Origin: Mobula hypostoma
Taxonomy: Eukaryota
DNA: 64,000 nt
Assembly: GCF_963921235.1 (NCBI RefSeq)
Contig: NC_086097.1
Span: 162,380,001 to 162,444,000, forward strand
Direction: 5' to 3'
The notes under the pieces are model-generated. The model was not told the DNA's origin, made no database searches, and was given only the letters and a program-made list of their open reading frames with translations. Position numbers and translations under genes: made by a program. Shown here one piece after another: positions 1,271 through 57,300 of this stretch (positions are counted from its first letter, which is position 1; each line of letters opens with the position of its first letter).

Positions 1271-2627
1271 TGATAACAACCCTGTTTAGTTTATTTTCCC
1301 AATTTTAAAAACAGCTAGAGTTGATGTTTTAATCCCATTAATGGTGAAAAATAAGAATCATGTTTGTTGCATGTGTTAATAACATAGATAAAAATATTTT
1401 CCATTTTGCCCAGTGTGTTCTGGTAAGCCAAGGACTGCTTGTGGTTATAGCCAATTTTTCACTGATTGCACTTAATTTGTGTGGATTCCTTAGTGAGAAT
1501 TCTGTTCCTGAGAATCTACCTGATGACTGAAGCATGAGATCATCCTGACAGCACAGCAGTCATGTAGAGCATGGAGGAGCGAAACAAACCCCTTTAAATT
1601 AAATGGTTTGTAGGTGGAAATGAACCTGATGCGTTTGATAACCATACTCTTAGTCTTCAGACCTGTCAAAAATAGGTAGGAGAATGCAAGGTATTGAAGT
1701 TTGCCGATGACATTAAAAGGGTCACAAGGGAATGTTGTGCTGACAGTATTGCAGCTCAGCAATGAATTGAAGATGCATTGATTAAATGGGTGAGAACTTG
1801 ACAAATGGAGTTTAATGTGGTAATGTTTGAGATCATGACCTTCAGTAAGAGGTAGCAGAAGGCAGATTACTCTGAATGGAGACTGCTTGGTGTATTGTGC
1901 CAGTGCAGCCAGTAGTTAAGGCAATTTGCATATTGGACTTTGTTGCAAGCGGGTTACAGTTTAGAAGTGGGCAAGTTTTGTTACAAATGTACAGTTTGTT
2001 GGTGAGGCCATTACCTGGAGCACTCTGCACAGTTTTAGTACCATTACTTAAGAAAAGATGTAGCGTTGGAGTCCATCCAATGTAAATTCACCTGCCTAAT
2101 TCCTGGGATGATAATTAAAAGAGGCTTAATGTGTTGGTTATGTATTCCAGGAAATTTAGAATGAGGGATGATCTTACTGAAATGCAGAAGGTCCTGATGT
2201 GTTATGGTAGGGTCAATATTGCTAAGCTTCCCCTAGTGGGAGAGTCTTAATGAGGGGACATGGGTACCAATCAATTAAAACCAACATGATTACTGATTTC
2301 CCTAAACAGATACAGGTGTTCCCCGATTTTCAAACGTTGGCTTTACGAAACCTCGCTGTTACAAAAGACCTACATTGTTACCTGTTTTTGCTAACAGAAG
2401 GTGTTTTCACTGTTACAAAAAAAGGCAGCGCGCACCCCGAGCAGCCAAGCTCCTCGTCCGGAACTGCATTCTCGCCGGCATTGCTTAAACACGTGCCTTT
2501 GAGCAGCCGTTAGCAAGATGAGCTCTAAGGTATCGGAAAAGCCTAAAAGAGCTCGTAAGGGTGTTACACTTAGTGTAAAACTAGACATAATTAAGCATTT
2601 CGATCGTGGTGAACGAAGTAAGGACAA

Positions 2628-4496
2628 GCAACACACATCAAAGTTGCTGGTGAACGCAGCAGGCCAGGCAGCATCTCTAGGAAGAGGCGCAGTCGCCATT
2701 TCAGGCCGAGACCTTTCATCAGGACGAACTGAAGGAAGAGTGAGTAAGGGATTTGAAAGTTGGAGGGGGAGATCCAAAATGATAGGAGAAGACAGGAGGG
2801 GGAGGGATGGAGCCAAGAGCTGGACAGGTGATAGGCAAAAGGGATACGAGAGGATCATGGGACAGGAGGTCCGGGAAGAAAGACGGGGGGGGGGGGAACC
2901 AGAGGATGGGCAAGGGGTATATTCAGAGGGACAGAGGGAGAAAAAGGAGAGTGAGAGAAAGAATGTGTGTATAAAAATAAGTAACAGATGGGGTACAAGG
3001 GGGCGGTGGGGCATTAGCGGAAGTTAGAGAAGTCAATGTTCATGCCATCAGGTTGGAGGCTAGCCAGACGGAATATAAGGTGTTGTTCCTCCAACCCGAG
3101 TGTGGCTTCATCTTTACAGTAGAGGAGGCCGTGGATAGACATGTCAGAATGGGAATGGGATGTGGAATTAAAATGTGTGGCCACTGGGAGATCCTGCTTT
3201 CTCTGGCGGACAGAGTGTAGATGTTCAGCAAAGCAGTCTCCCAGTCTGCGTCGGGTCTCGCCAATATATAAAAGGCCACATTGGGAGCACCGGACGCAGT
3301 ATATCACCCCGGTCGACTCACAGGTGAAGTGTTGCCTCACCTGGAAGGACTGTTTGGGGCCCTGAATGGTGGTAAGGGAAGAAGTGTAAGGGCATGTGTA
3401 GCACTTGTTCCGCTTACATGGATAAGTGCCAGGAGGGAGATCAGTGGGGAGGGATGGGGGGGACGAATGGACAAGGGAGTCGCGTAGGGAGCGATCCCTG
3501 CGGAATGCAGAGAGAGGGGGGGAGGGAAAGATGTGCTTAGTGGTGGGGTCCCGTTGGAGGTGGCGGAAGTCACGGAAGTCAAGCACATCTTTCCCCCCCC
3601 CCCGCATTCCGCAGTGATCGCTCCCTACGCGACTCCCTTGTCCATTCATCCCCCCCATCCTTCCCCACTGATCTCCCTCCTGGCACTTATCCGTGTAAGC
3701 GAAACAAGTGCTACTCATGCCCTTACACTGCCTCCCTTACCACCATTCAGGGCTTCCAAACAGTCCTTCCAGGTGAGGCAACACTTCACCTGTGAGTTGG
3801 CTGGGGTGATATACTGTGTCCGGTGCTCCCGATGTGGCCTTTTATATATTGGCGAGACCCGACGTAGACTGGGAGACCGCTTTGCTGAACACCTACGCTC
3901 TGTCCGCCAGAGAAAGCAGGATCTCCCAGTGGCCACACATTTTAATTCCACCTCCCATTCCCATTCTGACATGTCTATCCACGGCCTCCTCTACTGTAAA
4001 GATGGAGCCACACTCAGGTTGGAGGAACAACACCTTATATTCCGTCTGGGTAGCCTCCAACCTGATGGCATGAACATCGACTTCTCTAACTTCCGCTAAT
4101 GCCCCACCTCCCCCTCGTACCCCATCTGTTACTTATTTTTATACACACATTCTTTCTCTCACTCTCCTTTTTCTCCCTTTGTCCCTCTGAATATACCCCT
4201 TGCCCATCCTCTGGTTTCCCCCCCCCCTGTCTTTCTTCCCGGACCTCCTTTCCCATGATCCTCTCATATCCCTTGGCTCCATCCCTCCCCCTCCTGTCTT
4301 CTCCTATCATTTTGGATCTCCCTCTCCCCCTCCAAATCCCTTACTCACTCTTCCTTCAGTTAGTCCTGACGAAGGGTCTCGGCCTGAAACGGCGACTGCG
4401 CCTCTTCCTAGAGACGCTGCCTGGCCTGCTGCGTTCACCAGCAACTTTGATGTGTGTTGCTTGAATTTCCAGCATCTGCAGAATTCCTGTTGTTTG
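2628..4496. mobile_element. Penelope-like element 3' ends, inverted double (left arm -, right arm +)
   Basis: GIY-YIG ORF remnants (VIYCVRCSRCGLLYIGET...NIDFSNFR*) on both strands; 14-bp TSD CGAAGTAAGGACAA at 2614-2627 and 4497-4510. Confidence 0.9.
4362..4397 (+). ncRNA. Hammerhead motif with mutated cleavage triplet (GGC)
   Basis: AGTC-CTGACGA-AGGGTCTCGGCCT-GAAAC-GGC-GACT; the mirror copy at 2691-2726 (-) also has GGC. Confidence 0.6.
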
Positions 4497-4984
4497 CGAA
4501 GTAAGGACAAAGTGAGTTTGGCTTGTGGAAGTTGACGAAGATGATGTTGAAGAGGTTTTGGCAGCCCACGACCAAGAACAGATAGATGAAGAGCTGATGC
4601 AATTGGAAGAGGAAAGGATAACAATCGAAACCGAATGCAGTAGCGAACGGACCAAAAGTGAAGTCGTCCAGGAACTGAACGTGAAGCAATTGCATGAGAT
4701 TTTCGCTGCAGTGATTGCAGAAAAGTACGACTTTAATTTTGAAAGGGTACGTAGGTTTAGGGCATATTTGCATGATGGTTTGGGTGCTTACAAAGAACTG
4801 TATGGTAGAAAAATGCGCGAGGCTAAGCAATCAAGCATACTGTCGTTTTTCAAGCCTTCCACATCAGCCACAGCAGATGATGAACTTCGACCTTTGACAT
4901 CGAGGCAGGCAGACATAGAAGAAGATGACCTGCTTGCCCTGATGGAATCAAACAACGACGAGATGACACCCCAGCGTCCCACCA

Positions 4985-5319
4985 CTCCAACCTCCAGGCT
5001 GCGGACTGATACATTGCTGCGGAGAATGCAGCGGTAGCTGGGACGCACCCAACACACCTTTAAGAGAAAAGCCAAAATAAACAAGCTAATTAATTAGGTG
5101 CCGCCTGGCACGTAAATGTCGGCCCAGATCAGAGGCGATTGCCAATTGCATCGCCTCTGATCTGGGCTGACATTTACGTGCTGGGCGGCACCTAATTAAT
5201 TAGCTTGTTTATTTTGGCCTTTTTCTTAAAGATGTGCTGCGTGCGTCCCGGCTACCGCTGCACCACTGTATGCTTCGCGGATCGGTATCGGTTGGCGGCC
5301 TGGAGGTTGGGGACCACTG
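4985..5319. mobile_element. Palindromic MITE (hAT-like end) nested in the Tigger
   Basis: Near-perfect inverted repeat 5027-5262 centred near 5144; right end reads CAGTGGTCCCCAACC on the - strand. Confidence 0.6.
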
Positions 5320-6425
5320 CACCACCCCAACCTCCAATGACTCAGCCTAACACACCATCATCAATGTGCTCGGTGCTGTCTTCCCAAATCCAGTAAGTGA
5401 TACTACACCGTACATACATTATTTCTACTTTATATAGGCTGTGTATTTTTATGTGTTATTTGGTATGATTTGGCAGCTTCATAGCTTAAAGGTTACTGGA
5501 GAGAGTGTTTCTGCTGAGAGCGCTTGCGTGAGATTTTCGCTACGGAGAATAGTGTGGCACTGATTGTAGAAAAGTATTTCTACTTTATATAGGCTGTGTA
5601 TTTATCATATCATTCCTGCTTTTACTATTTTTTGCTTTTATTTTAGGTTTTCTGTGTTATTTGGCATGTTTTGGTAGGTTTTTTTTGGGTCTGCGAACGC
5701 TCACAAATTTTTGCCATATAAATAAATGGTAATTGCTTCTTCAGTTTACGACATTCTGGTTTATGAACCGTTTCGTAGGAACGCTCTACCTTTGGATGGC
5801 GGAAGAAACCTGTACCACATTAGTAGAGCCTCTGGATTCCCCTACTGCAGAAGTTTGTGGAGATAAGATGATTAGATGTATTTAAAACAGTGGCAGGTAA
5901 ATTTTGAAAAATTGAGACTCTGAGTACTTGGGGCTGTGGCACAGAAGTGGAGTTGAAGCCTGGAGTAGTTCACTGATTGAATAGCAGGAAAGTCTTGAGG
6001 GGCTAGGTGGCCTGTCCTTTTTTCTTGTGTTTACAATCTAGGAACCCAAACAATTCTTCAAGGTGAAGCAGTGATCACTTGTACATTTTTCCAATCTAGT
6101 GTACTGTATTTGCTGTCATTATTTAGGTAGATTTGCTTTGCAGAAATCAAGTGTGGATTGAACTCTACTCAGCATTATTCTGGGAAGGATAACACTAGTA
6201 GGACTGGAGTTGTTTGAGAAGATGGGTAATTGCCATCACTTGAGGGAATTAGAATAGACAATAAATGCTTTCTTTCCAGCAATACCTACTACTCATGAAT
6301 ATTAACATTCCATTTATATAACAATTAAGTTTTTATTGATTAGTCCTTTGGCAGGCCTAAGATATTTCTAACTTTACGTTTAAAACATTTTGCACACTCC
6401 TTTCCAATATTATTTTTCCTTTTAG

Positions 6426-13233: not shown

Positions 13234-13647
13234 GTAGGTTCTTTACTTTTAAAAAAAAATCACACACACACAACAAAATGGTGAGGATGCTAGATGTCGG
13301 GAATAGAAAATTGCTGGAAATACCAAGCAGGTAAATTATCAATACGGGAGAAAGTCAGTATTTGTTTCAAACAAAATTTAATTTCTTATGAAAGGTCATC
13401 ACTGAAAAATTGACTATTTCTCTCCTGCTAATTTTGCATGACCAGAATATGTCTAGTATATATCTGTTCTTGTCTTATATTTTCAGTTCAGTTTATGTTA
13501 GAGTGTTAAATCATTTTCTTGGAAAAAGTAACAAGTTATTTAGTATTGCAAACAACAGGAATTCTGCAGATGCTGGAAATTCAAGCAACACACATCAAAG
13601 TTGCTGGTGAATGCAGCAGGCCAGGCAGCATCTCTAGGAAGAGGTAC

Positions 13648-13683
13648 AGTCGACGTTTCAGGCCGAGACCCTTCATCAGGACT
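13648..13683 (-). ncRNA. Minimal type I hammerhead ribozyme motif (PLE-borne)
   Basis: Reverse complement AGTC-CTGATGA-AGGGTCTCGGCCT-GAAAC-GTC-GACT. Confidence 0.72.
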
Positions 13684-14875
13684 AACTGAAAGAAGAGTTG
13701 GTTAGAGATTTGAAAGTGGGAGGGGGAGATCCAAAATGATAGGAGAAGACAGGAGGGGGAGGGATGGAGCCAAGAGCTGGACAGGTGATTGGCAAAGGGG
13801 ATATGAGAGGATCATGGGACAGGAGGCCCAGGGAGAAGGAAAAAGTGGGGGGGGGAACCCAGAGGATGGGCAAGGGGTATAGTCAGAGGGACAGAGGGAG
13901 AAAAAGGAGAGTGAGAGAAAGAATGTGTGTATAAAAATAAATAACGGATGGGGTACGAGGGGGAGGTGGGGCATTAGCGGAAGTTAGAGAAGTCGATGTT
14001 CATGCCATCAGGTTGGAGGCTACCCAGACGGAATATAAGGTGTTGTTCCTCCAACCCGAGTGTGGCTTCATCTTTACAGTAGAGGAGGCCGTGGATAGAC
14101 ATGTCAGAATGGGAATGGGAGGTGGAATTAAAATGTGTGGCCACTGGGAGATCCTGCTTTCTCTGGCGGACAGAGCGTAGGTGTTCAGCAAAGCAGTCTC
14201 CCAATCTGCGTCGGGTCTCGCCAATATATAGAAGGCCACATCAGGAGCACCGGATGCAGTATATCACCCCAGCCGACTCACAGGTGAAGTGTCGCCTCAC
14301 CTGGAAGGACTAATGTGGCCTTCTATGTATTGGCGAGACCTGACGCAGACTGGGAGACCTCTTTGCTGAACACCTACGCTCTGTCCGCCAGAGAAAGCAG
14401 GATCTCCCAGTGGCCACACATTTTAATTCCACCTCCCATTCCCATTCTGACATGTCTATCCACGGCCTCCTCTACTGTAAAGATGAAGCCACACTCGGGT
14501 TGGAGGAACAACACCTTATATTCCGTCTGGGTAGCCTCCAACCTGATGGCATGAACATCGACTTCTCTAACTTCCGCTAATGCCCCACCTCCCCCTCGTA
14601 CCCCATCCGTTATTTATTTTTATACACACATTCTTTCTCTCACTCTCCTTTTTCTCCCTCTATCCCTCTGACTGTACCCCTTGCCCATCCTCTGGGTTCC
14701 CCCCTCCCCACTTTTTCCTTCTCCCTGGGCCTCCTGTCCCATGATCCTCTCATATCCCCTTTGCCAATCACCTGTCCAGCTCTTGGCTCCATCCCTCCCC
14801 CTCCTGTCTTCTATCATCTTGGATCTCCCCCTCCCCATCCCACTTTCAAATCTCTTACTAACTTTTCCTTCAGTT

Positions 14876-14911
14876 AGTCCTGAGGAAGGGTCTCGGCCTG
14901 AAACGTCGACT
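14876..14911 (+). ncRNA. Minimal type I hammerhead ribozyme motif (PLE-borne)
   Basis: AGTC-CTGAGGA-AGGGTCTCGGCCT-GAAAC-GTC-GACT: helix I AGTC/GACT, core CUGANGA and GAAA, GUC cleavage triplet. Confidence 0.7.
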
Positions 14912-15182
14912 GCACCTCTTCCTAGAGATGCTGCCTGGCCTGTTGCATTCACTGGCAACTTTGATGTGTGTTGCAAGTCATTTAGTATGAACATTAGGTG
15001 AATATATTGGACTTTGCAGTCAGTTCTGTAATCAAAGGCTAATATTAAACCCGTACACCCATTTCATTCTACCGTCCTCCCCATGTTCAAAAGCATCCTA
15101 AAACTTATTTCTTCAGTTTCACATCTTGGGATCAACATGTCAGGTCATTACATATTTTTTTTTAATAATTCATAGAATTCTC

Positions 15183-16415
15183 AATGGCTTTCCACGTGGC
15201 TTTAGACCACCTGGATAACACAAACACCTACATCAGGATGCTGTTCATAGATTATAGTTCAGCATTTAATACCATTATTCCCTCAATCCTGATTGAGAAG
15301 TTGCAGAACCTGGGCCTCCCTCTGCAATTAGATTCTCGACTTCCTAACCGGAAGACCACAATCTGTGCGGATTGGTGATAACATATCCTCCTCATTGACA
15401 ATCAACACTGGTGCATCTCAGGTGTGTACTTAGCCCACTGCTCTACTCTCTATGTACCCATGACTGTGTGGCTAGGCATAGTTCCAATACTATCCATAAG
15501 TTTGCTGATGATACAACCATTGTTGGTAGAATGTCAGGTGGTGAGGAGAGGGCATACAGGAGTCAGATATGCCAACTAGTGGAGTGGTGCCACAGCAATA
15601 AGCTGACACTGAACGTCAGTAAGACGAAAGAGCTGATTGTGGATTTCAGGAAAGGTAAAATGAAGGAACACATACCAATCCTCATAGAGGGATCAGAAGT
15701 GGAGAGAGTGAGCAGTTTCAAGTTCCTGGGTGTCAAGATCTCTAAGGATCTAACCTGGTCCCAACTTATTGATGCAGTTGTAAAGAGGGCAAGACAGCAG
15801 CTATACTTTAATAGGAGTTTGAAGAGATTTGGTATGTCACCAAATACACTCAAAAACTTCTATAGATGTACCTTGGAGAGCATTCTGATTCTGACAGGCT
15901 GCATCACTGTCTGGTGCGGGGGTGCGGTGGGTGGCTGCTGCACAGGACCAAAAGAAGCTGCAAAGGGTTGTAAATTTATTCAGCTCCATCTTGGGTACTA
16001 GCCTACAAAGTACCCAGGGCATCTTCAAGGAACGGTGTCTCAGAAAGGCAGTGTCCATTATTAAGGACTTCCAGCACCCAGGGCGTGCCCTTTTCTCACT
16101 GTTACCATCAAGTAGGAGGTAAGAAGCCTGAAGGCACACACTCAGCGATTCAGGGACAGGTTCTTCCCCCCCCTGCCATCCGATTTTTAAAAGGACATTG
16201 AACCCTTGGACCCTACCTCACTTTTTAAAATATATATTATTTCTGATTTTTTGCATGATTTTTAATCGATTCAATATACAGGTACTGTATGAAGTATACT
16301 GAATAGGATTTATTTCTTATTGTTTTTTTCTTCTATATTATGTATTGCATTGAACTGCTACAACTAAGTTAACAGATTTCATATCACATGCCAATGATAA
16401 TAAATCTGATTCTGA
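15183..16415 (+). mobile_element. Rex/Babar-like LINE 3' fragment
   Basis: [30 protein letters not shown]; tail AATAAATCTGATTCTGAT. Confidence 0.82.
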
Positions 16416-18064
16416 TAGCTCAGTAAAAGCCCTCCTACCCATGATATTGTCTTTTAACCTACTCTAAGATCAGTCTAATTCTTCCTTTCCACATAGCCTT
16501 ACATTTTTTTGTCTATATGTCTTACCTTTAGAATCTCCTAAATGTCCCCAATGTATCTATCTCCATCACCACCTTTGGCAGATACAGTACTCCAAGTGAG
16601 TTTTACAGAGCTGCAACATTACCTCCCAGCTCTTGAATTAAATCCCCTATTAATAAAAGCTAACACACCACGTGTTTCTCAACTGCTCATTAATTTGCCC
16701 TGCAACTTTGAAGGATCAGTGGATATGGACCTCAAGAGCCCTCTATTCCTTCATATTGTCATCCTGCCACTGACCGTGTATTCTGCCTTCAAGTTCAGCT
16801 TTCCATAGTGAACTTTCCTGGATTGAATTCCATCTGCCACTTCTCAGCCCAGGTCTCTGCAAACTCTCAACATCCTGTGAACTTCTGCACAATCCACCAT
16901 ACCACCAACTCTCGTGTCAAATGCAGACTTGCTAACCGTGCTCAATCAAGTCATTTATAAAAATTATAAAGAGCAGGGGATCCAAATAGATCCCTATGGA
17001 GCACCACTGGATTCAGACAGCATACATTCATGCTGAATTTGTTTTCTTATTCAAGAATAGGTATTTTGTTTCCTACAAAAAAGGAAAAAGAAATCTAATT
17101 ACACCAGATATATCTATTGTTAATTATCAATTTATAAGCATTAGGTTTACCTCAACGGGAAAAATCAAATTTTCTTTCTACTGGTGGTGGTGCTGTCATT
17201 TGAATGCATTACTTGTACAAAATTTTTAAAAAAAGTTCCGATTAATATTACCATTTTTGGTAGCTAAAAAAAATAAGTAAATTCTCAAATTATGAGGAGA
17301 ACAGGGAGGAGTCAGAGACTGAATGAGTTTGAAACATGAGGCTTGCATTTGTATAGGGACTTTCATAGCCTAGAAATGTTCCCAAGTGCTTTACAGCTGA
17401 GGAGGTATTTTATAAATGTAGTTTCATCTAAATAACAGTGCCCCCCCATAGTAAACCACTTGGTGTTGTATTTGAGTGATGGGAAAGAGTTTAGTTGTAA
17501 AAGGCTAAACTTACTTTGAAAAGAATCAGAAATAGTGTTTGAATCGTATTTTTGTATGCATTATTTATATATAATCTGGATTAAATTAGAAATTAAATAC
17601 AGACTATATAATAATGTTTTCAAAAATGTGAGCTCTGATTTTAATATTCCGTGAAATCTGCTGCCCCAACAGCACCCCCTCACCACCCTCGACCCCTTAA
17701 AAATACACGGACATGACTGTTAAAACTCAAAGATGTCCTTAGGAAACATCCCTGTATCCAATGTGCTGATGAAACTACTTTCCCTTGTATTCATTTGCAA
17801 AGTACTCAAGTTGCATATTCCAGGATTCTTAAAATTACAAATAAAACCTAAATGAGATCATATATTCAAAATTTAAGAATAAACTACTGTGGAATCTAAT
17901 TAGAGATATTCAATTAAACTGTGCTTGCAATTGTATATCAGGCATAACATGCACATTATATGATATTGTTTTTAAATTAGAAACAATAATAAGCTTTCAA
18001 AGAATATTCAATGCTGCAGCAGATTTGCTAATAATCATACATTTAAGTTGCAACTTAAACACCT

Positions 18065-18930
18065 CCCTACGCAACTCCCTTGTCCATTCGTCCCCCCCAT
18101 CCCTCCCCACTGATCTCCCTCCTGGCACATAACCGTGTAAGCGGAACAAGTGCTACACATGCCCTTACACTTCCTCCCTTACCACCATTCAGGGCCCCAA
18201 ACAGTCCTTCCAGGTGAGGCAACACTTCACCTGTGAGTCGGCTAGGGTGATATACTGCGTCCGGTGCTCCCGATGTGACCTTTTATATATTGGCGAGACC
18301 CGACACAGACTGGTCGACCGCTTTGCTGAACACCTACGCTCTGTCCGCCAGAGAAAGCAGGATCTCCCAGTGGCCACACATTTTAATTCCACATCCCATT
18401 CCCATTCTGGCATGTCTATCCACGGCCTCCTCTACTGTAAAGATGAAGCCACACTCGGGTTGGAGGAACAACACCTTATATTCTGTCTGGGTAGCCTCCA
18501 ACCTGATGGCATGAACATTGACTTCTCTAACTTCCGCTAATGCCTCACCTCCCACTCGTACCCCATCTGTTACTTATTTTTATACACGCATTCTTTCTCT
18601 CACTCCCTTTTTTCTCCCTCTGTCCCTCTGAATATACCCCTTGCCCATCCTCTGCGTCCCCCCCCCCCGTCTTTCTTCCCGGACCTCCTGTCCCATGATC
18701 CTCTTGTATCCCTTTTGCCAATCACCTGTCCAGCTCTTGGCTCCATCCTTCCCCCTCCTGTCTTCTCCTAGCATTTTGGATCTCCCCCTCCCCCTCCAAC
18801 TTTCAAATCCCTTACTCATTCTTCCTTCAGTTAGTCCTGACGAAGGGTCTCGTCCGGAAACGTCGACTGCACCTCTTCCTGGAGATGCTGCCTGGCCTGC
18901 TGCGTTCACCAGCAACTTTTATGTGTGTTG
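18065..18930 (+). mobile_element. 5'-truncated Penelope-like element (GIY-YIG plus 3' region)
   Basis: GIY-YIG ORF 18214-18540; 11-bp TSD CTTAAACACCT at 18054-18064 and 18931-18941. Confidence 0.9.
18833..18868 (+). ncRNA. Minimal type I hammerhead ribozyme motif (PLE-borne)
   Basis: AGTC-CTGACGA-AGGGTCTCGTCCG-GAAAC-GTC-GACT; helix II partly eroded. Confidence 0.68.
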
Positions 18931-22827: not shown

Positions 22828-24080
22828 GTAAGTGGTTTTCATTCTAGAGAAATGTCTTCTGCTGTTTTTGTCAGTAGGATTCTTACTAGATGTAACTTAA
22901 ATAAATGCCAAGCAAATCCAGGTTGTATTGACTCTGCCTCCTATTTCTTGTATACACTGTCACCTTTTAAAAAAGGATCTTATATAGTCCAAATTACCCC
23001 CTATATCACAAGCATGTAATAGAAATATAAAATTTGTGTGATTTCTCAAATTTCAAGGTATAAAGCAAATGCATTTCTATATTTTCTCTAATCCTCTGTA
23101 GCTTAAGGAGTGATGACATAGGATTGGAGAGCTGCCAACATTGTCATCGTAATCATCACAGACACATTCAGACTTTAGAAACTGTAGATTATATACACTT
23201 GTTCTAACCTTTGCTATACTTGAAGATGGACTTTCTATGCCAATAAATTTCACGACACATCAAGTCAGGTCTTAAAATTAATTTCCTCCTATAGATGGTC
23301 ATAGTCAATCTGAGTTTTCCCTCTCCAGGGCTCAAGCCTTGGCATGGGAACATGGAAACCCTGTATCACTAGGTTCTAGAGGGGAAGTATGTACCAATGC
23401 TGTTTGATATGAGCTCAGCTACTGGAGTTGAAAAATATTATTGAGACTCCATTCCTGATTTTGCATCTCTCCCAAGATTTCCCATAAGACCGTAGAGTTT
23501 TAGATTAAAGTTTGTGTTTCAGGTTTTTTACTTCTAAATATGCATGGAAAAGATTGAATTACATAATAGAGAACCTGGTAACATTTTCTAAAGATAAGAC
23601 ATTTTTCCTGTTGCTTTAATACTTAGTTATCATTCATTTACCACCCAAGCTGTCACATTGCTTAAAGCATTAGGTTTGAAGGTACCTCGCCTTTGTATTG
23701 ATCAGTAATAATGTCTGTGTTACATAAAAGCCAGGGAGAGATGTGACTTTCAGATTGAGACACTTGCCTTTGGGCATTTCATGGAACTTATTCTCACTAC
23801 CAGCTCAACAAAATGCTCTTGAGAGGAATTGCTAATTTTATTCCACTACTAAAAATGGGAGGGAAGGGATAGGCTATGTAATTAAAGCCAGTTCTAATGA
23901 AGCATAACTAACTCAGTTTTTCTCTCTCTACCTAAGTTGTCTGCTATTGTTTACTTCCATTACTTTACTTAAATTTCAAATTTGTAACGTTTTCATTTAA
24001 AAAATTTTAAATTTCAGGGCTTTAGTCCAAACACTAAGCATATCAGGCAGCAGTTGTGGAAATAGGACTTTTAGATTCTA

Positions 24081-25248
24081 CCAGACAACGGGGTGACCCG
24101 TTGGGGCACCCTTTGAGAGAAGGGTAGTGCAGTCTGATGTGACCAAAATGAACATTAAATTTTTCTGAATGATATTGGTATCGCTTTGCTTTGGAAATTG
24201 AAGAAGAAAACCTCAGTTTACTAAAGAAGAACGATGTGTAGCAAGGCAAATATAGCTCCTCTTCATTTAACGAAGGACACTTTTGATGGCATCATTTCTG
24301 GTTGATCTGCCACCCTTGTGCCTGTCGTTGTCATTCTGGAGACGTGCAGTCCTTTCATCTGCAGTCTCTTCATGTCTTCTGCTGTTTGTTCTTTGTCTCT
24401 GATCCTGGAGACGTGCATTTCTCAGCTCCTTTGTCTCTTCATCTCTCCTCCTTCTATGCCAGTTGTCATTTTTGAGACGTGCATGCCTCTCCTCCTCTGT
24501 CTCTTCTTCTCTCATCTTCCTTGTCCTGACTCTTTGATCCTGGAGTCGTGCGGCCCTGGCCTCATCTGATTCTTGTTCTGTCCCTCTCCTTGCCGCTTCC
24601 CAACGACGTTTGGCGTCATCTCTTGACCATAATGTCCCCCTTCTCTTTCCACGCAGCATAATTAGGCTGACCATATTTTCTTTACCCTAATGCTGGGATA
24701 GTAACACCACAGCCTCCAGGATGCTGATTATTCCTGATGATGTTGTTGGTGCTCTCCTAAATGGACACGATATAGTCACCGCTGTCCTTTGACTGCAGCA
24801 AAGGGTTTGATGGGTGTCTCGAAGTACGTCATTACAATAAGATTTAATTATCTCTTATTGATGGGTGACAGTTACATCTGTCCCAATCCTGCACATGTTG
24901 ATGGCGATTAGCAGAATGTGATTGCTCGATAAAGCTGCCCTGCCTTTTGTTCCGGTTGGTGTCATTGCTGTGAGTATCGTGAGTCGCTGCTGAGGCTGGC
25001 CGTGTGCATGCATCGGGCTGTCGCGTCCCGATTTCCATGATGGCGGGTCGGCTGTCGGGTTAAAAGGGAGCCTGTTGATTTTTGCCGAATGTTATATGAA
25101 TATATAACCCTGAACTTTGCCTGCATTGTGTACGTTAGCGCATTTTAATTTGATTTAGCCAAAAAGAGTGCTGCTGTAATGCACCATGTGTGCTAATTGG
25201 CGGTCACAAACAGACAGACAGAGCATGAGAGTTTTAGTAGTATATAGA
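24081..25248 (-). mobile_element. Non-autonomous Helitron (1168 bp) in an AGO2 intron
   Basis: On -: A|TCTATATACTAC... hairpin CAACGGG-TCAC-CCCGTTG ...CTGG|T; no TSD; homologous to both ends of the 52570-59434 element. Confidence 0.9.
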
Positions 25249-26484
25249 TTAAAATAAATTCTGTAAAATCATGTAAGATCCAAGTATGATCATGTTGGCC
25301 TAATTTACTTTTTTTTGAAGAGATAACAAGGCATTGGAATTGGTTCATTATTGTCACATGCACATGGGCTTGTAGCTGAGTGGACTGCAGCAAGACTTTT
25401 AAAATCCTACATGTTCAAAGTGATAGCACATGGGATCTGTGGAAAATGTCAAATTGGATCCAAAATTGGCTTTGTAGTTGGAACTAAGTAATGATTGATG
25501 GGTGTTTCTGTTGGGTTTCCTTGTTAGGATTCAATATTTGCTTCGTTTTTGTATTAATATCATAATGATATGGATTAAAATGGAGAATGCATGATAAAGA
25601 AGTGGGTGAATATTACAGAACCAGACCCCGTGATTGACTAATACATTTGGGGAAACCCACTGAGCAAGGGAATATGCAAGAAATAAGTTACCAGCGGGTT
25701 TGGTGGATCAAACGAACCATGGACTGTCTGTCTTTGGGTTGTTAAGAGTGGTGAATTGGATTGAAAGGACAGCTAATTCACTTCATCAGCTGAAGCAGTG
25801 AATAATAGAATAGGGGGGTTATGTAAATAACACTTGTTAGACTACATCATGAATTTAGTGTGCTGTTTTGGTCACCACATAATAGCGAAGATGTTAGCAC
25901 AGGAGAATGTGGTAAAGACTTGCAGGGATGTTACAAGAACATTTTGTGTGTGAAGAAATAATTGATTTTGTAGGGATGTCTTCTTTGTAATAGAGGAAGC
26001 TGAAGGAAGAATTAATTATGTTTAAAACTGTGAAACTTCAAGTAAATTGGCAAGAACATATTCTATGTGCAAAGGAGTCAGGTATTGCTTTAAAGGAACT
26101 GACAGAGGTTATGAGGAAACACTTTTACCTAAAGGAAGGCAGGGGACTGGAATTCACTGCCTGACAGGGTGGTAAAGACATTGTCACATTAAAAAAAAGC
26201 ACTTGAATATTCACTTGAAAGGTACTAATTTGCTAGATTATAGATTTTAAACTGGATTAATCCTGGTAGCATCCCTTTGATTGTAATGGACACAGTGGGA
26301 CCACTGCTTGAATGGCCTTTCTAAAGTAGAACACCGTTTTGCTTCACCTTATGTCACTAGTATAGACATTTTACTAGAAAAGAATATTCTGGGAACAGGA
26401 TTCACTTTAAATCCTTAATCTATTTAAAAGTGTTTTTTATTGTTTGGACCTTGATCTAAAATCTATTGATCTTTTATTTTGCAG

Positions 26485-26849: not shown

Positions 26850-28585
26850 CCAGCTATCTCTTGTGGACAAAGACAGCTCCAATGCCATATTCAAGTTTGC
26901 TATTGGCACCACTGTTGAAAGCAAAATCAAAGATGGTAGTGAATCAGCATAAAGGAGGGAGATTAAAGATCTGGCTAAGTGGTGTCATAACAACAACCTC
27001 TTACTCAATATCAACAAGATCAAGGAGCTGGTTATAGACTTCAGGAGAAGGAAACTAAAGGTCTATGAGCAGACCTCAGAGGATTAGAGATGGGTTAGCA
27101 ACTTTAAATTCCTAGCTTTTGTTATTACGGAGGACTTAGCTTGGGTGCAGCACAATTACAAAAAAAATTCACGGTAGTGCCTCTGCTTCCTTAGGAGTTT
27201 GTGGAGATTCAGCATTACATCTAAAACTTTGACAAACTTCTATAGGATGTGGAGTGGATAGTACATTGACTGGCTGTATCACAGTCTGGTACAGAAACAT
27301 CAGAATCAGGTTTATTATCACCAGCATGTGTTGTGAAATTTGTTAACTTAGCAGCAGTAGTTCAATGCAGTACATAATATAGAAGAAGAAAAAATAACAA
27401 TGACAATAAATAAGTAAATCAATTACAGTATATGTATATCAAATAGATTAAAAATCGTGCAAAAAATAAGAAATAGTATATATTTTAAAAAGTGAGGTGG
27501 TATTCACAGGTTCAATGTCCATTTAGGAATCAGATAGCAGAGAGAAAGAAGCTGTTCCTGAATTGCTGAGTGTGTGCCTTCAGGCTTCTGTTCCTCCTAC
27601 TTGATGGTAACAGTGAGAAAAGGGCATGCCCTGAGTGCTGGAGGTTCTTAATAATGGATGCTGCCTTTCTGAGACACCACTCCTTGAAGATGTCCTGGGT
27701 ACTTTGCAGGCTAGTACCCAGATGGAGCCGACTAACTTTACAACCTTCTGCAAGTTTTTTCGGTCCTGTGCCCACCCACCCCCTTACCAGACAGTGGTGC
27801 AGCCTGTTAGAGTGCTCTCCATGGTACATCTATAAAAGTTTTTGATTGTGTTTGTTGACATACCAATTCTCTTTAAACTCTTAATGAAGTATAGTCACTG
27901 TCTTGCCTTCTTTATAACTGCATCAATAAGTTAGAACCAGGTTAGGTTCTCAGAGATCTTGACACCCAAGAGCTTGAAACTGCTTACTCTTTCCACTTCT
28001 GATCCCTCTGTGGATTAGTATGTGTTCCTTCGTCTTGCCCTTCCTGAAGTCCACAATCAGCTCTTATATGGAGAATTCTGCAAAAAGTAGTGGACATGGC
28101 CATCATGGGTAAAGCCCTCCCCACCATTGAGCACATCTGCATTAAACACTTCTGCAAGAAAGCAGCTTTCATCATCAGGAACCCCCACCACCCAGGACAT
28201 GCTTCTTTCTCCCTGCTGCCATCAGAATGAAGATATAGGAGCCACAGGTCACACACTAGCAGTTTCAGGAACAGTTACTACACCTCAACCATCAGACTCT
28301 TGAACCAAAAGGGATAACTTCACTTACCCATTCACTGAAATGTTCCCACAACCAATGGATTAATTTTCAAGGACTCTTTGTCTCACATTCTTTATTGCTT
28401 ATTTATTATTATTTATTCTTTTTATATTTACACAATTGTCTTCTGCACTCTCGTTGTACAACCTAGTTGGGCAGTCATTCATTGATTCTGTTAGCGTTAT
28501 CATTCTGTAGATTTATTCAGTATGGCCGCAAGAAAATGAATCTCAGTTGTATATGGTGACATGTATATACTTTGATAATAACATT
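26850..28585. mobile_element. Nested Rex/Babar-like LINE fragments (+ copy interrupted by a - copy at ~27300-28060)
   Basis: Clear similarity to 15183-16415 in both orientations. Confidence 0.7.
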
Positions 28586-38200: not shown

Positions 38201-38849
38201 TTAATTTGAATGTCTTGTGTTCTCAAAGTTACCCCTCATCTCTAAAATTTGGCCATTATTGCTGTTACGTGATCACTGTTATGATTGCCTCTTATGAAAA
38301 TTCTATAATTGCATAAATATAATTAAATATGGTATTTCAATACTACCACAATTTTAAGTACTGAAATGTATGTTACTGATGTCATCTTAAGATTTTAAGA
38401 CACTATTATAACTATCCCAGTATCAACTCATTGTAACCAAAATATAAACAATCCATCCGCTTGAAAACCCATTTAGTTTGTCTCTCCTAGCTCTTTAAGA
38501 GCAGTCCACATTAGTTCCACCTGCTTTTGACTATCACCCAATTCCAATTCCTCCAGTATCTATTTAAACTCCCTTTTAAGAGTGAAGACAACTTTGAAAG
38601 GGAGGAAGAACAAGATCTTTCTCACTCATCTCCCCCCTCAGATTCCACTACATCTGATAAAACAGTGATAATAAACCTTTTGCTACTGGTGTTAAATCTG
38701 CAGTTATTGGCTTAATTGCTCAATAGTTTTTCTCCTCTATTAGAACCTTGAAAACCTGTTCGGGCTCTCCATTCTAAGAATGTTCACGTCCTTTCCAAAC
38801 TCCTTACTAGTTCCTGTTTCATTTCAACTGTGGTGAACTGTTAGAAGTA

Positions 38850-39060
38850 AAAGAAAATCTGCAAATATTGGAAATCCGAGCAACTACCAAAAGTTGGAGA
38901 AATCTGTGTTCAACCCATCAGGTTGGAGGAATACAAGGTGTTTCTCCTCTGACTTGAGTGTGGCCTCATTGTGACAGTGGAGGAGGCCATGGACTGACAC
39001 GTGGGAATGGGAAGTGGAATTAAAATGGGTGGCCACTGGGAGATTCTGCTTTCTCTGTGA
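38850..39060 (-). mobile_element. Old Penelope-like GIY-YIG fragment
   Basis: QRKQNLPVATHFNSTSHS...QPDGLNTDFSNF. Confidence 0.75.
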
Positions 39061-41914: not shown

Positions 41915-41987
41915 ACTTGGCTAGCTCAGCCAGTACAGCATGTGACTCTTAATCACAGGGTTGTGGTTTCAAGCCTCACTTTGGGTG
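41915..41987 (+). pseudogene. tRNA-Lys(CTT) pseudogene
   Basis: 73-nt colinear match to vertebrate tRNA-Lys-CTT (GGCTAGCTCAG...CTCTTAAT...GGTTTCAAGCC); CpG decay, weak acceptor stem, altered B box. Confidence 0.8.
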
Positions 41988-50270: not shown

Positions 50271-50789
50271 TAAACAACAGGAATTCTGCAGATGCTGGAA
50301 ATTCAAGCAACATACATCAAAGTTGCTGGTGAACACAGCAGGCCAAGCAGCATCTATAGGAAGAGGCGCAGTCGACGTTTCAGGCCGAGACCCTTCGTCA
50401 GGACTAACTGAAGGAAGAGTGAGTAAGGGATTTGAAAGCTGGAGGGGGAGGGGGAGTTGCAAAATGATAGGAGAAGACAGGAGGGGGAGGGATAGAGCCG
50501 AGAGCTGGACAGGTGATAGGCAAAAGGGGATACGAGAGGATCATGGGACAGGAGGTCCGGGAAGAAAGACGGGGGGAGGGGGACCCAGAGGATGGGCAAG
50601 AGGTATATTCAGAGGGACAGAGGGAGAAAAAGGAGAGTGAGAGAAAGAATGTGTGTGCATAAAAATGAGTAACAGATGGGGTACGAGGGGGAGGTGGGGC
50701 CTAGCGGAAGTTAGAGAAGTCAATGTTCATGCCATCAGGTTGGAGGCTACCCAGACGGAATATATGGTGTTGTTCCTCCAACCTGAGTG
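50271..50789 (-). mobile_element. Penelope-like 3' fragment in CHRAC1 intron 1
   Basis: Same family sequence, from LRLEEQH...NFR* to the terminus GAATTCCTGTTGTTT; no clear TSD. Confidence 0.88.
50370..50405 (-). ncRNA. Minimal type I hammerhead ribozyme motif (PLE-borne), sense to CHRAC1
   Basis: Reverse complement AGTC-CTGACGA-AGGGTCTCGGCCT-GAAAC-GTC-GACT. Confidence 0.72.
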
Positions 50790-50799
50790 AGGACGGTGA

Positions 50800-51290
50800 T
50801 GGGGGAATAGGAACACAGACCGACAGCCGTGGAGGCAAGGACCCGGGGACGACCAGGTGACGGGGTTGGCGGCGGGGATGACAGGAAGGCCGGGTGGGGA
50901 ACGGGGGAGCTAGGATGGCAGGACTGGGACACGGGAAGGTAGGTGTTGGGGGGAGAGGGTGGAGGACTGGGGAAGGTGGATCTCCGCCCGCGCCCCCACC
51001 CCCGGTTCCCGGGGACGATACGTTGGTTGAACGGGAGGACCGCAGCGCCGCACTCACAGTGGCTTTGGCGGTGAGGAAGAGCGCGTCCTGGTTGATGCTC
51101 GACACGTCGGGGCAGCTCTTCATGATGAGCTTGACGCGGGAGAGCGGCAGCGCCAGCACGGCGGGCGGGGGGCTGCGGCGCGCGGGGAACCGCAGACCCT
51201 CGCGCCGCTTCACCTCCGCCATCTTGTCGGGCCGCGGCCACCGAGCCCGCCGGGGAAAGAAGTGGTGGGGAAGATCCGAGCACCTCGAGG
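50800..51290 (-). promoter_or_regulatory. CpG-rich CHRAC1 5' region with YY1-type motif
   Basis: High GC and CpG density in an otherwise CpG-poor window; CCGCCATCTT (51216-51225) overlaps the start codon. Confidence 0.65.
51058..51222 (-). CDS. CHRAC1: Chromatin accessibility complex protein 1, exon 1 (histone fold)
   Basis: aagATGGCG start in CpG-rich DNA; MAEVKRREGLRFPARRSPPPAVLALPLSRVKLIMKSCPDVSSINQDALFLTAKAT|gtgagt. Confidence 0.92.
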
Positions 51291-51740: not shown

Positions 51741-52078
51741 CGGCACTCGGGTGCGGTGCGCGGCGTGGAGCCGGCACTCGGGTGCGGTGCGCGGCGTGGA
51801 GCCGGCACTCGGGTGCGGTGCGGTGCGTGGCGTGGAGCCGGGCGCTGCAGCGGGGCCGGTACTCGGGTGCGGTGCGCGGCGTGGAGCCGGCACTCGGGTG
51901 CGGTGCGGTGCGTGGCGTGGAGCCGGGCGCTGCAGCGGGGCCGATACTCGGGTGCGGTGCGCGGCGTGGAGCCGGCACTCGGGTGCGGTGCGTGGCGTGG
52001 AGCCGGGCGCTGCAGCGGGGCCGGTACTCGGGTGCGGTGCGCGGCGTGGAGCCGGGCGCTGCAGCGGGGCCGGCACTC
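51741..52078. repeat. GC-rich compound minisatellite
   Basis: Tandem units GGCACTCGGGTGCGGTGCGCGGCGTGGAGCC (31 bp), variably extended by an extra GGTGC and by GGGCGCTGCAGCGGGGCC. Confidence 0.95.
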
Positions 52079-52174
52079 TGGTGCTGCCAGACAACAAGTT
52101 CTTCCACGTTTTATTTTGTTCCAAATTCTAGTACCTCCAATCTCTGACTCTAGCCATTGGGCTTCTGAATTAGG

Positions 52175-52366
52175 GCAACACACACAAAACACTGGAGGGA
52201 CGCAGCAGACCAGGCAACATCTATGGAAAAGAGTAAACAGTTGAAAGGTGTCGGCGTAACGCGGACTGTGTACTCTTTTCCATGGATGCTGCCTGGCCTG
52301 CTGAGTTCCTCCAGCGTTTTGAGTGTGCTGCTTGGATTTCCAACATCTGCAGATTTTCTCTTGTTT
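52175..52366. mobile_element. Miniature inverted double of a related Penelope-like 3' terminus
   Basis: Arms 52175-52245 (-) and 52264-52366 (+) are mutual reverse complements; degenerate flanking repeat TGGG(CT/TC)TCTGAATT. Confidence 0.7.
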
Positions 52367-54389
52367 GGGTCTCTGAATTTTTTTAAAGCTAATTTTTCAT
52401 GTTTCATATACACCCTTGGCAAACCAGCATTTCTGTTATGACCCACTGAATCTGTGCTGACCATCGAGCAAGCGTTTATAGGATGAGAGTCAGATTCACT
52501 GTCACTGATAGTAATCGTGAAATTTGTTGTTTCGTGGCAGCAGTGCAGTACAGGTAAAACAAATTACTATCTATATACTACTAAAATTCTCATGGTCTGT
52601 TTGTTTGTTTGTGACCTCCAATTAGCCCAAATGGTGCATGACAACGGCACTTTTTTCGACTAAATCAACTCAAAATGTGCTAACTTACAGAATGCATGCA
52701 AAGTTTAGGGTTATATATTCATATAAAATCGCTCACTCGTCAATCAACAGGCCCCACTTTCCACAACCCGAGCCGATTCCAGCTTTAATGGAAACCGCGA
52801 CACGACACCATGGCGCATGCGCATGGCCAGCCTCAGCAGCGCCTCACGATGCTCACAGCAGCGACACCAAACGCAGCAAAAGGGCAAGACTATCACGTCC
52901 ATTTAGGAGCGGGCCAACCACATCATCAAGAAAAATCAGCTTCCTGGAGGCATTGGTGTTACTGCTTCGTATCTTCTATCAAGCATTAGGGTAAAAAAAA
53001 TGGACAGCTTAATTATGCCGCTTGGAAAAAGAAGGGGGACATTATGGTCAAGAGATGACGCCAAACGTCGTCGGGAAGTGGCAAGGAGAGGGAGAGAACG
53101 AGAATCAGATTAGGCCAGGATCAAAGGGTCAGGACAAAAATGATGAGAGAAGAAGAGACAGAGGAGGAGAGGCATGCATGTCTCCAAAATGACAATAATG
53201 GGCACAGAAGGAGGAGAGAACAAGAATCGATCAGGCCAGGGCTGCACGACTCCAGAATCAGAGAGAAAGAACAAATGGTAGAAGAGATGAAGAGACGAAG
53301 GATGAAAGGGCTGCGGGTCTCCAGAATAACAAAAAAAGGCAGAGACTGAGGAAAGAGGAAGAGACAGAGGAGAAAAGGAAAGATCAACTTAAAAATATGC
53401 AGTAAAGACTACCCTATTGAATAATGAGCAAAGAGAAGTATATGAATATGTGTGTGACTGCTTGGAAAGGAATCTCTCTTAAATGATTTTCATTGATGCA
53501 CCAGGAGGAACGGGCAAGATATTTATCATCAACTTGATCCTCGCTGAAGTTAGGGGAGATGGAGGTGTTGCTATTGCTGTAGCATCATCAGGTATTGCAG
53601 CAACATTGATGCCTGGTGGTAGGACAGCGCATTCAAGATTCAAAATACCCCTCAAAGTCAATGAAGATGCCCTTTGTAACATCGATAAAAACACCAATAC
53701 TGCAAATGTACTCCAAAATGCGAGGCTTATTGTCTGGGATGAGTGCTCCATGATTAGGAGGGAGAGCTTCGAAGCCGTGGACCGGACTTTTAGTGATGTA
53801 TGCAGCAGGAATGAGGCCTTCAGAGATATTTTAACCATTTGCTGTGGTGATTTCCGTCAGCTTCCAGCAGATGTGAAACGAGGAAATGATGCTGATGTGG
53901 AGAATTCTTGCATAAAAAAATCCTACTTATGGAGAAGCTTCTTCAAGTTTCAATTGAAGAGAAACCTGCAATTGAGTGAGGGAGAAGGACTATATGCTGA
54001 GTTCTTATTGGATGTTGGAGAAGACAAGATTGAGAAAAATGAAAAGGATGAAATTGAATTACCTGAAGATATGATTCTGCCAGCAAAAAGTATGGAAGAA
54101 TGTGTTGATTTCATCTACCTGACATTTGACAATCCTGCAGAACTGTTCTGGAGGAATTCTATTTTGGTTCCTCTCAATGAAATGATGCGAAAAATAAACT
54201 CCACATGCATTAGACGCTTCCCTGGTATCGTGAAAGAATACTGTTCCTTCAATACCGCAGGTGAAGGAGCTAACGCCACTCATTTTACAACAGAATTCCT
54301 TGATTTGGTTGAACTCTGGATTGCCACCACATAAACTGGAATTGAAGAGGGGATCTCCCATCATTTCAATGAGTAACTTGGATCCACCA

Positions 54390-57300
54390 TCTTCTAACAT
54401 TGATTTATTTAAACAAGGGGTTGAACTCCAATCACAATATAATTTACTATTAACTTTTCCTATTGAAAGAAATTTGCTTAAATTGAAAAGTCAATTTTAT
54501 GTGTTTGGAGGTAAAAATAATAAGCTATTAGCATCTCAATTAAAAGCAGCCAGAGCCAAAAGACAAATTTTAAAAATTCATAAGGGAGACGGTAGTTTAC
54601 CTTGTAATTATGAAGACATTAATAAAATTTCAAGACTTTTATGTTGAACTTTATAAATCTCAGTTTCCAGCTGATCCCTCTAAAATGAATGCCTTTTCAC
54701 GAAAGATTGATTTTCCTTGAATTTCTGTTGAAGATCAACAAACTCTAGATACTCCTATTACTAAAAACAAAATTCAGAAAGCTATTCTTTCAGTGCAATC
54801 TGGTAAAGCTCCTGGATTGGATGGTTATTCTGTAGGATTTTATAAAAAAATTGAAAAATTGCTTTCTCCATATATGTTGGAAATGCTTAAAGATTCTATT
54901 TTGATAGGAGAGTTACCTCCCACATTTTATGAAGCTTCTATTTCTTTAATTCTTAAGAAAGGTGAAGACCCTGCTGACTGCTTCTTACAGACCTATTTCA
55001 TTATTAAATATGGATGCTAAAATTCTTTCAAAAATCGACTGGAGAATATTCTAGCTAAAATTATCTCTCAGGACCAAACAGGTTTTGTAAAGGGCCGTTA
55101 TTCCTTCTCTAATACTTGGAGACTGTTAAATGTTACATACTCATCCTTTTCTAAGACTCCCCATTGTGTTCTTTCTCTTGATGCTGAAAAGGCATTTGAC
55201 AGAGTTGAAATGAAATACTTATTTAACGTTTTAGAGAAATTAGACTTTGGTATTAATTTTAATAAGTGGATTAGAATGATATATAAAAGCCCTATTGCTG
55301 CTGTTATTACTAATAATTGCAAATCTCCTTCTTCTCGACTCTCACAGGGTATGAGACAAGGATGTCCGTTAAGTCCCTTATTATTTAATTTGGTGTTGGA
55401 ACCCTTGGCCATTGCACTTCGTGAAGCTAAAGATATCCATGGATTTTTCATAAATAGGGCTATTCATAAGATCTCCCTTTACGCTGACGATCTCTTAGTT
55501 TATGTTTCGAATCCTGAAGAATCCATTCCTAGTTTATTGAAATTATTAAATGAATTTGGAAAGTATTTGGGAATTTGGAATATAAACTGAACCTTCATAA
55601 AAGTGAATTATTTCCCCTAAATGATTCTACTTCTATATATGATGACATTCCTTTTAGAGTTATGGACTCTTTTAAATATTTAGGTATTATTATCACTAAA
55701 AATCATAGTCATAGTCATACTTTATTGATCCTGGGGAAAATTGGTTTTCGTTACAGTTGCACCATAAATAATAAATAGTAATAGAATCATAAATAGTTAA
55801 ATAGTAATATGTAAATTATGCCAGTAAATTATGAAATAAGTCCAGGACCAGCCTATTGGCTCAGGGTGTCTGACCCTCCAAGGGAGGAGTTGTAAAGTTT
55901 GATGGCCACAGGAAGGAATGACTTCCTATGACGCTCTGTGCTGCTTCTCGTTGGAATGATTCTCTGGCTGAATGTACTCCTGTGCCCACCCAGTACGTTA
56001 TGTAGTGGATGGGAGTCATTGACCAAGATGGCATACAACTTAGACAGCATCCTCTTTTCAGACACCACCGTGAGAGAGTCCAGTTCCATCCCCACAACAT
56101 CACTGGCCTTACGAATGAGCTTGTTGATTCTGTTGGTGTCTGCTACCCTCAGCCTGCTGCCCCAGCACACAACAGCAAACATGATAGCACTGGCCACCAC
56201 AGACTCGTAGAACATCCTCAGCATCGTCCGGCAGATGTTAAAGGACCTCACTCTCCTCAGGAAGTAGAGATGTCTCTGACCCTTGTAGACAGCCTCAGTG
56301 TTCTTTGACCAGTCCAGCTTATTGTCAATTCGTATCCCCAGGTATTTGTAATCCTCCACCATGTCCACACTGACCCCCTGGATGGAAACAGGGGTCACCG
56401 GTATCTTAGCTCTCCTCAGGTCTACCATCAGCTCCGTAGTCTTTTTCACATTAAGCTGCAGATAATTCCGCTCACACCATGTGACAAAGTTTCCTACCGT
56501 AGCCCTGTACTCAGCCTCATCTCCCTTGCTGATGCAGCTAACTATGGCAGAGTCATCTGAAAACTTCTGAAGATGACAAGACTGCAGTAGTTGAAGTCCG
56601 AGGTGTAAATGGTGAAGAGAAAGGGAGACAAGACATAGACCAAAGATAGAGACCTTTATAGAGCTAATTTGATTCCTTTAGTGGATTTTATGAAGTAATT
56701 ATTTTGTAGATGGAATCCATTTACACTTTCGTTAGCCGGCCAAGTTCATGCAGTTAAAATGATGATTTTACCAAAATTTTTATATGTATTTCAAAATATC
56801 CCTTTTTTTTAAACTAAGAAGTTTTTTGATCAGATTGATTCTATTATTTTATCTTTTGTTTGGAATAATAAAAGACCAAGAATTGGAAAATATCATTTAC
56901 AAAAATTAAAAAAGGATGGAGGTCTTGCCCTGCCTAATTTAAGAATGTACTATTGGGCTGTTAATGTATGTTATATGTGTTCTTGCTTATATTGGACTGA
57001 TAAAAATGAACGACCACCTTGGGCTGATTTGGAATTGAAAGCTGAGAAACAGTTTCACTTAACCTCGTTGTTAGGAGCTTCTTTATTTGTACAACTGGCC
57101 AAAATCGCTAATCTAAATTTATATCCTATGATTAAGCAGTCATTACGAATTTGGTACCAGTTCGTAATATTTTTAATCTCAAAAAATTTAACCTGAGTTT
57201 AATTTATTGTAATTATTTATTTAAACCTTCATTAAGTGATCCTCCCTTTCTTCTTTGAAGGAATAAAGGAGTTTATTCCTTCATGGATCTGTTCCAAGAA

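Follow-up and report, generated by a model that had tools for sequence, protein, structure and literature searches.

A pair of transposon copies, arranged head-to-head, lies close to AGO2 exons in the ray Mobula hypostoma. The question raised by this locus is whether the resulting inverted repeat has a special relationship with AGO2 or is simply a standard transposon insertion. Note that, throughout, "the window" refers to the whole 64-kb stretch of DNA that was analysed, and a "double" refers to two oppositely oriented element copies that form one unit. The initial annotation described the focal unit as a near-perfect hairpin derived from a Penelope-like element (PLE). Self-comparison of the window bore out the head-to-head arms, at 2628-~3570 and 3581-4496, between two exact 14-bp duplications. 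The duplicated sequence, CGAAGTAAGGACAA, is a direct repeat at 2614-2627 and 4497-4510 with 14/14 positions identical. Searching both strands of the 64-kb window, we found it nowhere else. Pairing extends inwards as far as 3538 on the left and 3581 on the right, leaving a 42-nt loop (3539-3580), in good agreement with the ~40 unpaired nt first estimated. Coordinates of this unit, and of related features, are listed in Table 1.

Table 1. Features of the focal PLE unit, its surroundings, and other PLE copies in the window.
Feature	Position	Strand	Comment
Host DNA transposon, pogo/Tigger-like (presumed), internally deleted	2313-5812	+	TA-flanked, CAGGT ends; interrupted by PLE unit
Left target-site duplication	2614-2627	+	14-bp; uninterrupted transposon contigs pass 2627 into 4511-onward sequence
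Left arm, 5'-truncated PLE	2628-3570	-	Tail-less 3' end at 2628
Degenerate minimal hammerhead motif, left pLTR	2689-2728	-	GAAATGGC in place of GAAACGTC
PLE ORF, C-terminal end	3014-3570	-	Open in left arm; CX4CXXC linker, VIY-CXXC-YIG endonuclease, stop 3014-3016
Inversion junction	3571-3580		4-10 nt filler completing CGGAAGTCA repeat
Right arm, 5'-truncated PLE, frameshifted	3581-4496	+	24-nt and 7-nt gaps versus left arm
Degenerate minimal hammerhead motif, right pLTR	4360-4399	+	GAAACGGC
36-nt PLE "tail"	4461-4496	+	Right arm only
Right target-site duplication	4497-4510	+	14-bp
AGO2 (assigned by similarity), last ten coding exons	6426-31885	+	Residues 389-865; all AG/GT sites; ends in stop
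Second double, another AGO2 intron	13547-14974		Left arm tailed, right arm without tail; duplication 14/15
Single tail-less copy	18063-18930	+	11-bp duplication; AGO2 intron shared with second double
Single tailed copy outside AGO2	50272-50792	-	Possible 9-bp duplication, 8/9
Third double, miniature, older, outside AGO2	52175-52367		~190 bp; tail-less left end, tailed right; duplication 13/15

The term "near-perfect" proved to be an overstatement. In a six-copy alignment, 38 of 873 columns differ between the focal arms (4.35%), which are also offset by gaps of 24 and 7 nt. The longest uninterrupted Watson-Crick run in the unit is 62 bp, and 17 runs are at least 21 bp long. A pairwise alignment of the arms gives 42 differences in 886. 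Of the 38 differences, 15 are at CpG; 19 changes are assigned to the left arm and 17 to the right, with 2 unassigned. In the same six-copy alignment, the focal arms differ by 5.2-6.8% from the window's four remaining young copies. The two arms are hardly closer to each other than to copies at other loci.

The ends of the unit are also unequal, a point overlooked previously. At its 3' end, the left arm has 3 bases in common with the target (2625-2627). It also has 32-38 extra 5' bases, while a 36-nt tail is present on the right arm only. Hence, neither arm contains the other, and so neither can simply be a DNA copy of its partner. At the junction, the initial annotation recognised a small duplication, and CGGAAGTCA is indeed present twice (3564-3572 and 3573-3581). 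However, this is partly the element's own sequence. Past 3570, other copies of the element read on as TGCGGAGGATAATG in contigs from sequencing runs X5 and X17. Similarly, homologous proteins contain ILRNFRHLQ, while the window reads DFRDFRHLQ at the junction. Together, the TGCGGAGGATAATG continuation and the homologous proteins indicate that most of the first CGGAAGTCA, and part of the second, are native, so that only ~4-10 nt were added. Native left-arm sequence may reach about 3576.

The PLE unit interrupts a DNA transposon, which the initial annotation did not notice and which we take to be pogo/Tigger-like. A weak CENP-B_N match at 2515-2625 (E 0.0027) falls short of the Pfam cut-off, and the depth of read contigs jumps at 2292-2363. 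In run X17, four contigs cross from 2627 directly to what lies beyond the right copy of the duplication. These contigs show the uninterrupted transposon, and need not be from the orthologous site. Since the transposon is exactly restored when the unit and one copy of the duplication are taken away, we conclude that there was a single insertion and that the duplication is a true one. This sustains the earlier view of one event bracketed by one 14-bp target-site duplication. Run X5 covers the orthologous flank, where 16 substitutions occur in about 760 bases, together with the left edge of the host transposon, present at single-copy depth. A contig of single-copy depth stops matching at 2627 and has 2 further letters; with 5 differences in 92 letters, it is perhaps from another copy of the transposon. 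In run X9, which we guess to be RNA but may be DNA, a 217-nt contig is identical to the unique flank at 1885-2101; we give this match no weight. The host transposon also has an internal inverted repeat of its own (4987-5310), with 113-nt arms that match at 92%, a 10-nt loop, and outer 49-nt arms. This is a second hairpin in the intron that carries the PLE unit.

Could the inverted structure be an assembly or library artefact, namely a fold-back chimera, or else the product of two independent, adjacent insertions? Such structures trouble short-read assemblies (PMC8557442), and the central junction is bridged by no contig among the 32 pieces listed (there are 305,770 further pieces). Note that the contig comparison took in the left arm plus 60 bases of its partner, and that the list of contig variants includes 18 places within the arm, with 40 of 128 places shown in all. 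However, a fold-back chimera should not have arms that are 4.4% apart and gapped. Furthermore, both arms lie within one exact duplication, removal of the unit and one duplication copy restores the host transposon to the base, and the unequal ends obey the known rule for this type of element. We consider both possibilities extremely improbable.

Judged by their motifs, both arms derive from the 3' part of an endonuclease-bearing (EN+) PLE. The product of the left-arm open reading frame, P0005, contains VIYCVRCSQCGLLYIG with downstream histidines, as in EN+ PLE endonucleases, and ends at a stop codon. Among 12 longer proteins compared, the best match to P0005 is a Mobula hypostoma protein (91%), followed by Hypanus and shark proteins. 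P0005 is also 48% identical to P0015, a reverse transcriptase-bearing protein with RVT_1 upstream. Pfam matches to GIY-YIG are all weak, and below the cut-off, with E-values of 0.077 for P0005 and 0.0005 for its homologues. EN+ PLEs encode a telomerase-related reverse transcriptase ahead of the endonuclease in one ORF; no reverse transcriptase was found in the truncated arms or elsewhere in the 64-kb window. That the left-arm frame is still open was considered as a sign of function and rejected; it stays open in 73% of 5000 random-substitution trials, as chance alone would give.

The linker CKRNKCYTC precedes the C-terminal VIY-CXXC-YIG endonuclease and has the form CX2-5CxxC. In PMC8557442, such a linker upstream of GIY-YIG is a mark of the Neptune clade that is common to Nematis. 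The focal element shares this linker with Neptune-clade PLEs and differs in that its arms have no reverse transcriptase. It would thus be Neptune-like, and a member of the Neptune or Nematis clade, going by the linker rather than by a reverse transcriptase tree. The family is plainly very abundant in the genome. In run X5, the contigs covering the arm sum to a depth ~100,000x that of single-copy flank, a ratio that is not a copy number. Among the literature matches listed, nothing was relevant to PLEs of elasmobranchs, although published work may exist.

Hammerhead ribozyme motifs were sought with a minimal descriptor, as in PMC4209133. The four non-focal young copies have the arrangement TAGTC-CTGANGA-stem-GAAACGTC-GACTG, as expected of a hammerhead, with a changed core in one copy. 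The pLTRs of the focal arms carry degenerate versions. In both, a T-to-G change (2696 and 4392) has converted the GTC triplet, which we take to be the cleavage triplet, to GGC; the four other young copies have GTC. Rfam, at gathering score, detects no hammerhead, and no microRNA family, in the 64 kb. Its sole match, at 41915, is weak and tRNA-like (41915-41987, + strand, 30.4 bits) and is probably the head of a SINE. Taken together, the endonuclease motif, homologous proteins, hammerhead motif, and tail uphold the original identification of the element as a PLE.

That PLEs can form inverted-repeat insertions was also part of the initial annotation, and this is the typical published structure. 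In PMC3846280, Penelope elements typically have an adjacent inverted 5'-truncated copy, an optional 31-bp tail at one end, and one duplication. The head-to-head arrangement is the most frequent, and the structure is also seen in flies and fish. PMC8557442 describes the same insertion structure, with a 30-40-bp tail that is often at only one end. The focal unit has each of these properties: an inverted 5'-truncated copy, a tail of 30-40 bp at one end, and a duplication round the whole. Hence, its layout is that of the usual PLE insertion, and the architecture is already known. The closest match is the canonical EN+ unit exemplified by Pen2a_Av, from Adineta vaga (PMC3846280; PMC8557442, fig. 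2). The two units share the head-to-head arms, a tail at one end, a single duplication, and a hammerhead motif in the terminal repeats. Conversely, both focal arms are truncated to ~0.9 kb, and the unit lacks a reverse transcriptase as well as a tandem direct repeat. The focal duplication is 14 bp, compared with 8-10 bp in the rotifer examples (PMC3846280/PMC8557442), and the focal unit is most likely in the intron of a vertebrate gene.

How, then, was the unit made? We are confident that it represents one insertion of two oppositely oriented 5'-truncated PLE pieces, likely primed from both staggered nicks, and that it is likely a neutral passenger in an AGO2 intron. Briefly, the element's protein would nick both strands of the target, 14 bp apart. 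Target-primed reverse transcription would then proceed from each nick, starting before the tail in one case and after it in the other. Both cDNAs would halt ~0.9 kb in, and the two would be joined with a few filler bases. Biochemical precedent comes from Anolis Poseidon (PAc). In PMC11167929, the purified protein is shown in vitro to cut and extend the two DNA strands, starting at two sites that bound the tail. The focal unit similarly has two discrete 3' end positions that bound the tail and, with one 3' end on either side, agrees with the PAc scheme, in which both strands are nicked and extended. Note that PAc belongs to a different clade, and that its start sites are not homologous to the cut DNA, whereas 1-3 bases can be read as common to the target and the focal ends. 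The joining of two cDNAs goes beyond what PMC11167929 showed and is something that we infer for the focal unit.

Alternatively, a single cDNA might have folded back and primed its own copying. The second arm would then be a DNA copy of the first, with a small deletion at the junction later obscuring this. Self-priming has been proposed for such junctions (PMC3846280), and both focal arms stop within ~35 nt of the same position in the element. The hammerhead T-to-G change, common to both arms, is also as expected from self-priming. Furthermore, the second double in the window fits this scheme, with a left arm that contains the right. However, because neither focal arm contains the other, an extra deletion, or a template switch, would be needed. 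Sequence differences between the arms also count against self-priming. At 3221 and 3313, neither of which is a CpG, the left-arm letter makes up between about a third and a half of the summed contig depth in runs X5 and X9, and little of it in X17. At both positions the right arm has the other letter, so that alleles shared with the wider pool are missing from it, although these depth fractions are rough. On the same rough fractions, the two alleles suggest that there were two related templates. Conversely, the shared hammerhead change suggests either one source or later conversion. The arms may have differed from the birth of the insertion. We regard self-priming as unlikely, though worth keeping in mind, and prefer priming from both nicks. 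Units in which neither arm contains the other constrain the unsettled last steps of PLE integration.

Two more doubles of the focal layout, both overlooked previously, are present in the window. In the second double (13547-14974), the arms are 3.05% apart and include one perfect run of 301 bp. Here, 11 variants are common to both arms and absent from the four other copies. This double begins 313 nt below the donor at 13233 and makes a better duplex than the focal unit. In 3/3 doubles in the window, the tail-less end and the tailed end are at the same two element positions, while the single copies at 18063 and 50272 use one end position each. Two of the three doubles are in the AGO2 half of the window, which is no enrichment (binomial p 0.62), in a test of very low power. 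An old PLE fragment, 77% identical, is located outside AGO2 at 38849-39057 (- strand).

We next consider the gene. Translated, the ten exons in the window are identical to shark AGO2 (P0002, residues 389-865) at 476 of 477 positions. When compared with solved AGO1-4, P0002 scores 1872 bits against AGO2, versus 1717, 1638, and 1626 against AGO1, 3, and 4. Being closest to AGO2 among AGO1-4, and having a spliceable open frame, the host gene can be assigned, by sequence, as AGO2. Its exons keep the four motifs that hold the AGO2 catalytic residues, and these motifs have a catalytic role in the protein. Residues 1-388 have no match in the window better than E 4.7. The PLE unit is 1.9 kb upstream of an internal AGO2 acceptor (residue 389). 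The presumed intron, whose upstream exon lies beyond the window, is 6.4 kb or longer. Since ten AGO2 exons, from residue 389 on, are downstream, and residues 1-388 are not in the window, the site would be intronic if the gene is intact. Hence, the unit is most likely in an AGO2 intron, provided that the upstream part of the gene, beyond the window, is intact too. The initial placement upstream of the internal exon at 6426 is correct in itself, and it is the intronic status that depends on an exon beyond the window. The term "AGO2 intron" has 0 occurrences among the literature matches listed, which is not to say that nothing is in print.

Nine inverted pairs, each 80 nt or longer, occur across the AGO2 span. 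In a separate observation, LINE-like fragments at 15628-16416 and 27299-28065, in two AGO2 introns, also form an inverted pair (83% over 793 nt).

Logically, if the intron is transcribed, a duplex forms, by virtue of sequence. The nascent AGO2 transcript would fold into a duplex of ~870 bp with 4-5% mismatches. The central 751 nt have a predicted folding energy of -696.5 kcal/mol (z -41.5), a value trivially expected for any such repeat. To this extent, the earlier proposal that AGO2 pre-mRNA would fold into a long duplex follows from the sequence. Intronic inverted repeats are commonly edited by ADAR, and intronic duplexes are nuclear and short-lived. The AGO2 duplex would probably be edited as a bystander and discarded with the intron, as would many similar repeats in the genome. 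Note that arm contigs of this very high-copy repeat give no guide to editing: their A>G and T>C counts come together with G>A and C>T contributed by other copies.

We looked for signs that pairing has been kept. On the sense transcript, mismatches between the focal arms comprise 15 G·U, 15 A·C, and 8 others (p 1.0), and the second double has 9 G·U versus 7 A·C. The focal substitutions thus have no bias towards keeping pairing, at 30 informative sites, where weak selection would be missed. As G·U and A·C pairs are equally split, no selection for pairing is seen, and the pattern is as under neutral decay.

These data bear on whether the hairpin has been exapted. On that account, the AGO2 duplex would be cut by Drosha/Dicer into anti-PLE siRNAs, or cutting would tune AGO2, and the insertion would have been kept as a result. 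Given transcription of the intron, the duplex, with its 17 Watson-Crick runs of at least 21 bp, is thermodynamically certain, and AGO2 keeps all four of its catalytic-residue motifs. Two long doubles are also found within the 31.9 kb of AGO2. However, gaps of 24 and 7 nt have been tolerated, there is no pairing bias, doubles occur both in and outside AGO2, and an intronic duplex would be expected to remain nuclear and to be short-lived.

The nearest experimental system gives similarly mixed guidance. In transgenic Drosophila melanogaster, inverted regions of rearranged Penelope copies are matched by siRNAs of 21-22 nt (PMC3681739), and so long PLE inverted repeats are a possible source of siRNAs, as here. 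However, the same paper reports that these siRNAs silenced Penelope inefficiently. The Drosophila repeats are also young and near-identical, whereas the ray unit is most likely in a vertebrate intron and has arms 4.4% apart. Furthermore, mammalian Dicer is adapted to microRNAs and not to long dsRNA (PMC11239679), though rays may differ from mammals. Overall, we think it very unlikely that the hairpin has been exapted. An equally slim prospect is that the two long ray AGO2 doubles act as sensors, with their transcription yielding anti-Penelope siRNAs, or co-transcriptional cutting, and so coupling AGO2 dose to silencing of a retroelement that is among the most abundant in the genome.

We conclude that the special status first given to the AGO2 locus is not borne out. 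The layout is typical, a second and better-paired double is also in AGO2, a third is outside, and there is no pairing bias. Similarly, the suggested feedback loop, specific to AGO2, finds no support, because nothing marks this locus out from very many similar duplexes. By a rough estimate, given the abundance of the family, one locus would add little to a pool of anti-PLE small RNAs. Our preferred reading remains a single insertion, primed from both nicks, that is carried passively.

Other features of the window lie beyond AGO2. The first exon of a histone-fold gene is at 51058-51222 (- strand; Pfam CBFD_NFYB_HMF, E 7e-5). The gene is likely CHRAC1, which, we assume, adjoins AGO2 in other vertebrates. 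A GC-rich tandem array (51745-52084) is upstream of this exon. At 52570-54390 is a repeat with a stretch that, by eye, is helicase-like. It is possibly a piece of a Helitron, and partial copies are at 24080-25250 and 58486-58927.

The focal locus itself matters little; it is one more standard PLE insertion, in an eye-catching gene. It would matter more only if AGO2 were enriched for, or dependent on, such hairpins. As a class, however, doubles would provide many intron-containing transcripts with ready-made long RNA duplexes. Such a genome would be well suited to studying the treatment of long duplexes by ADAR and Dicer.
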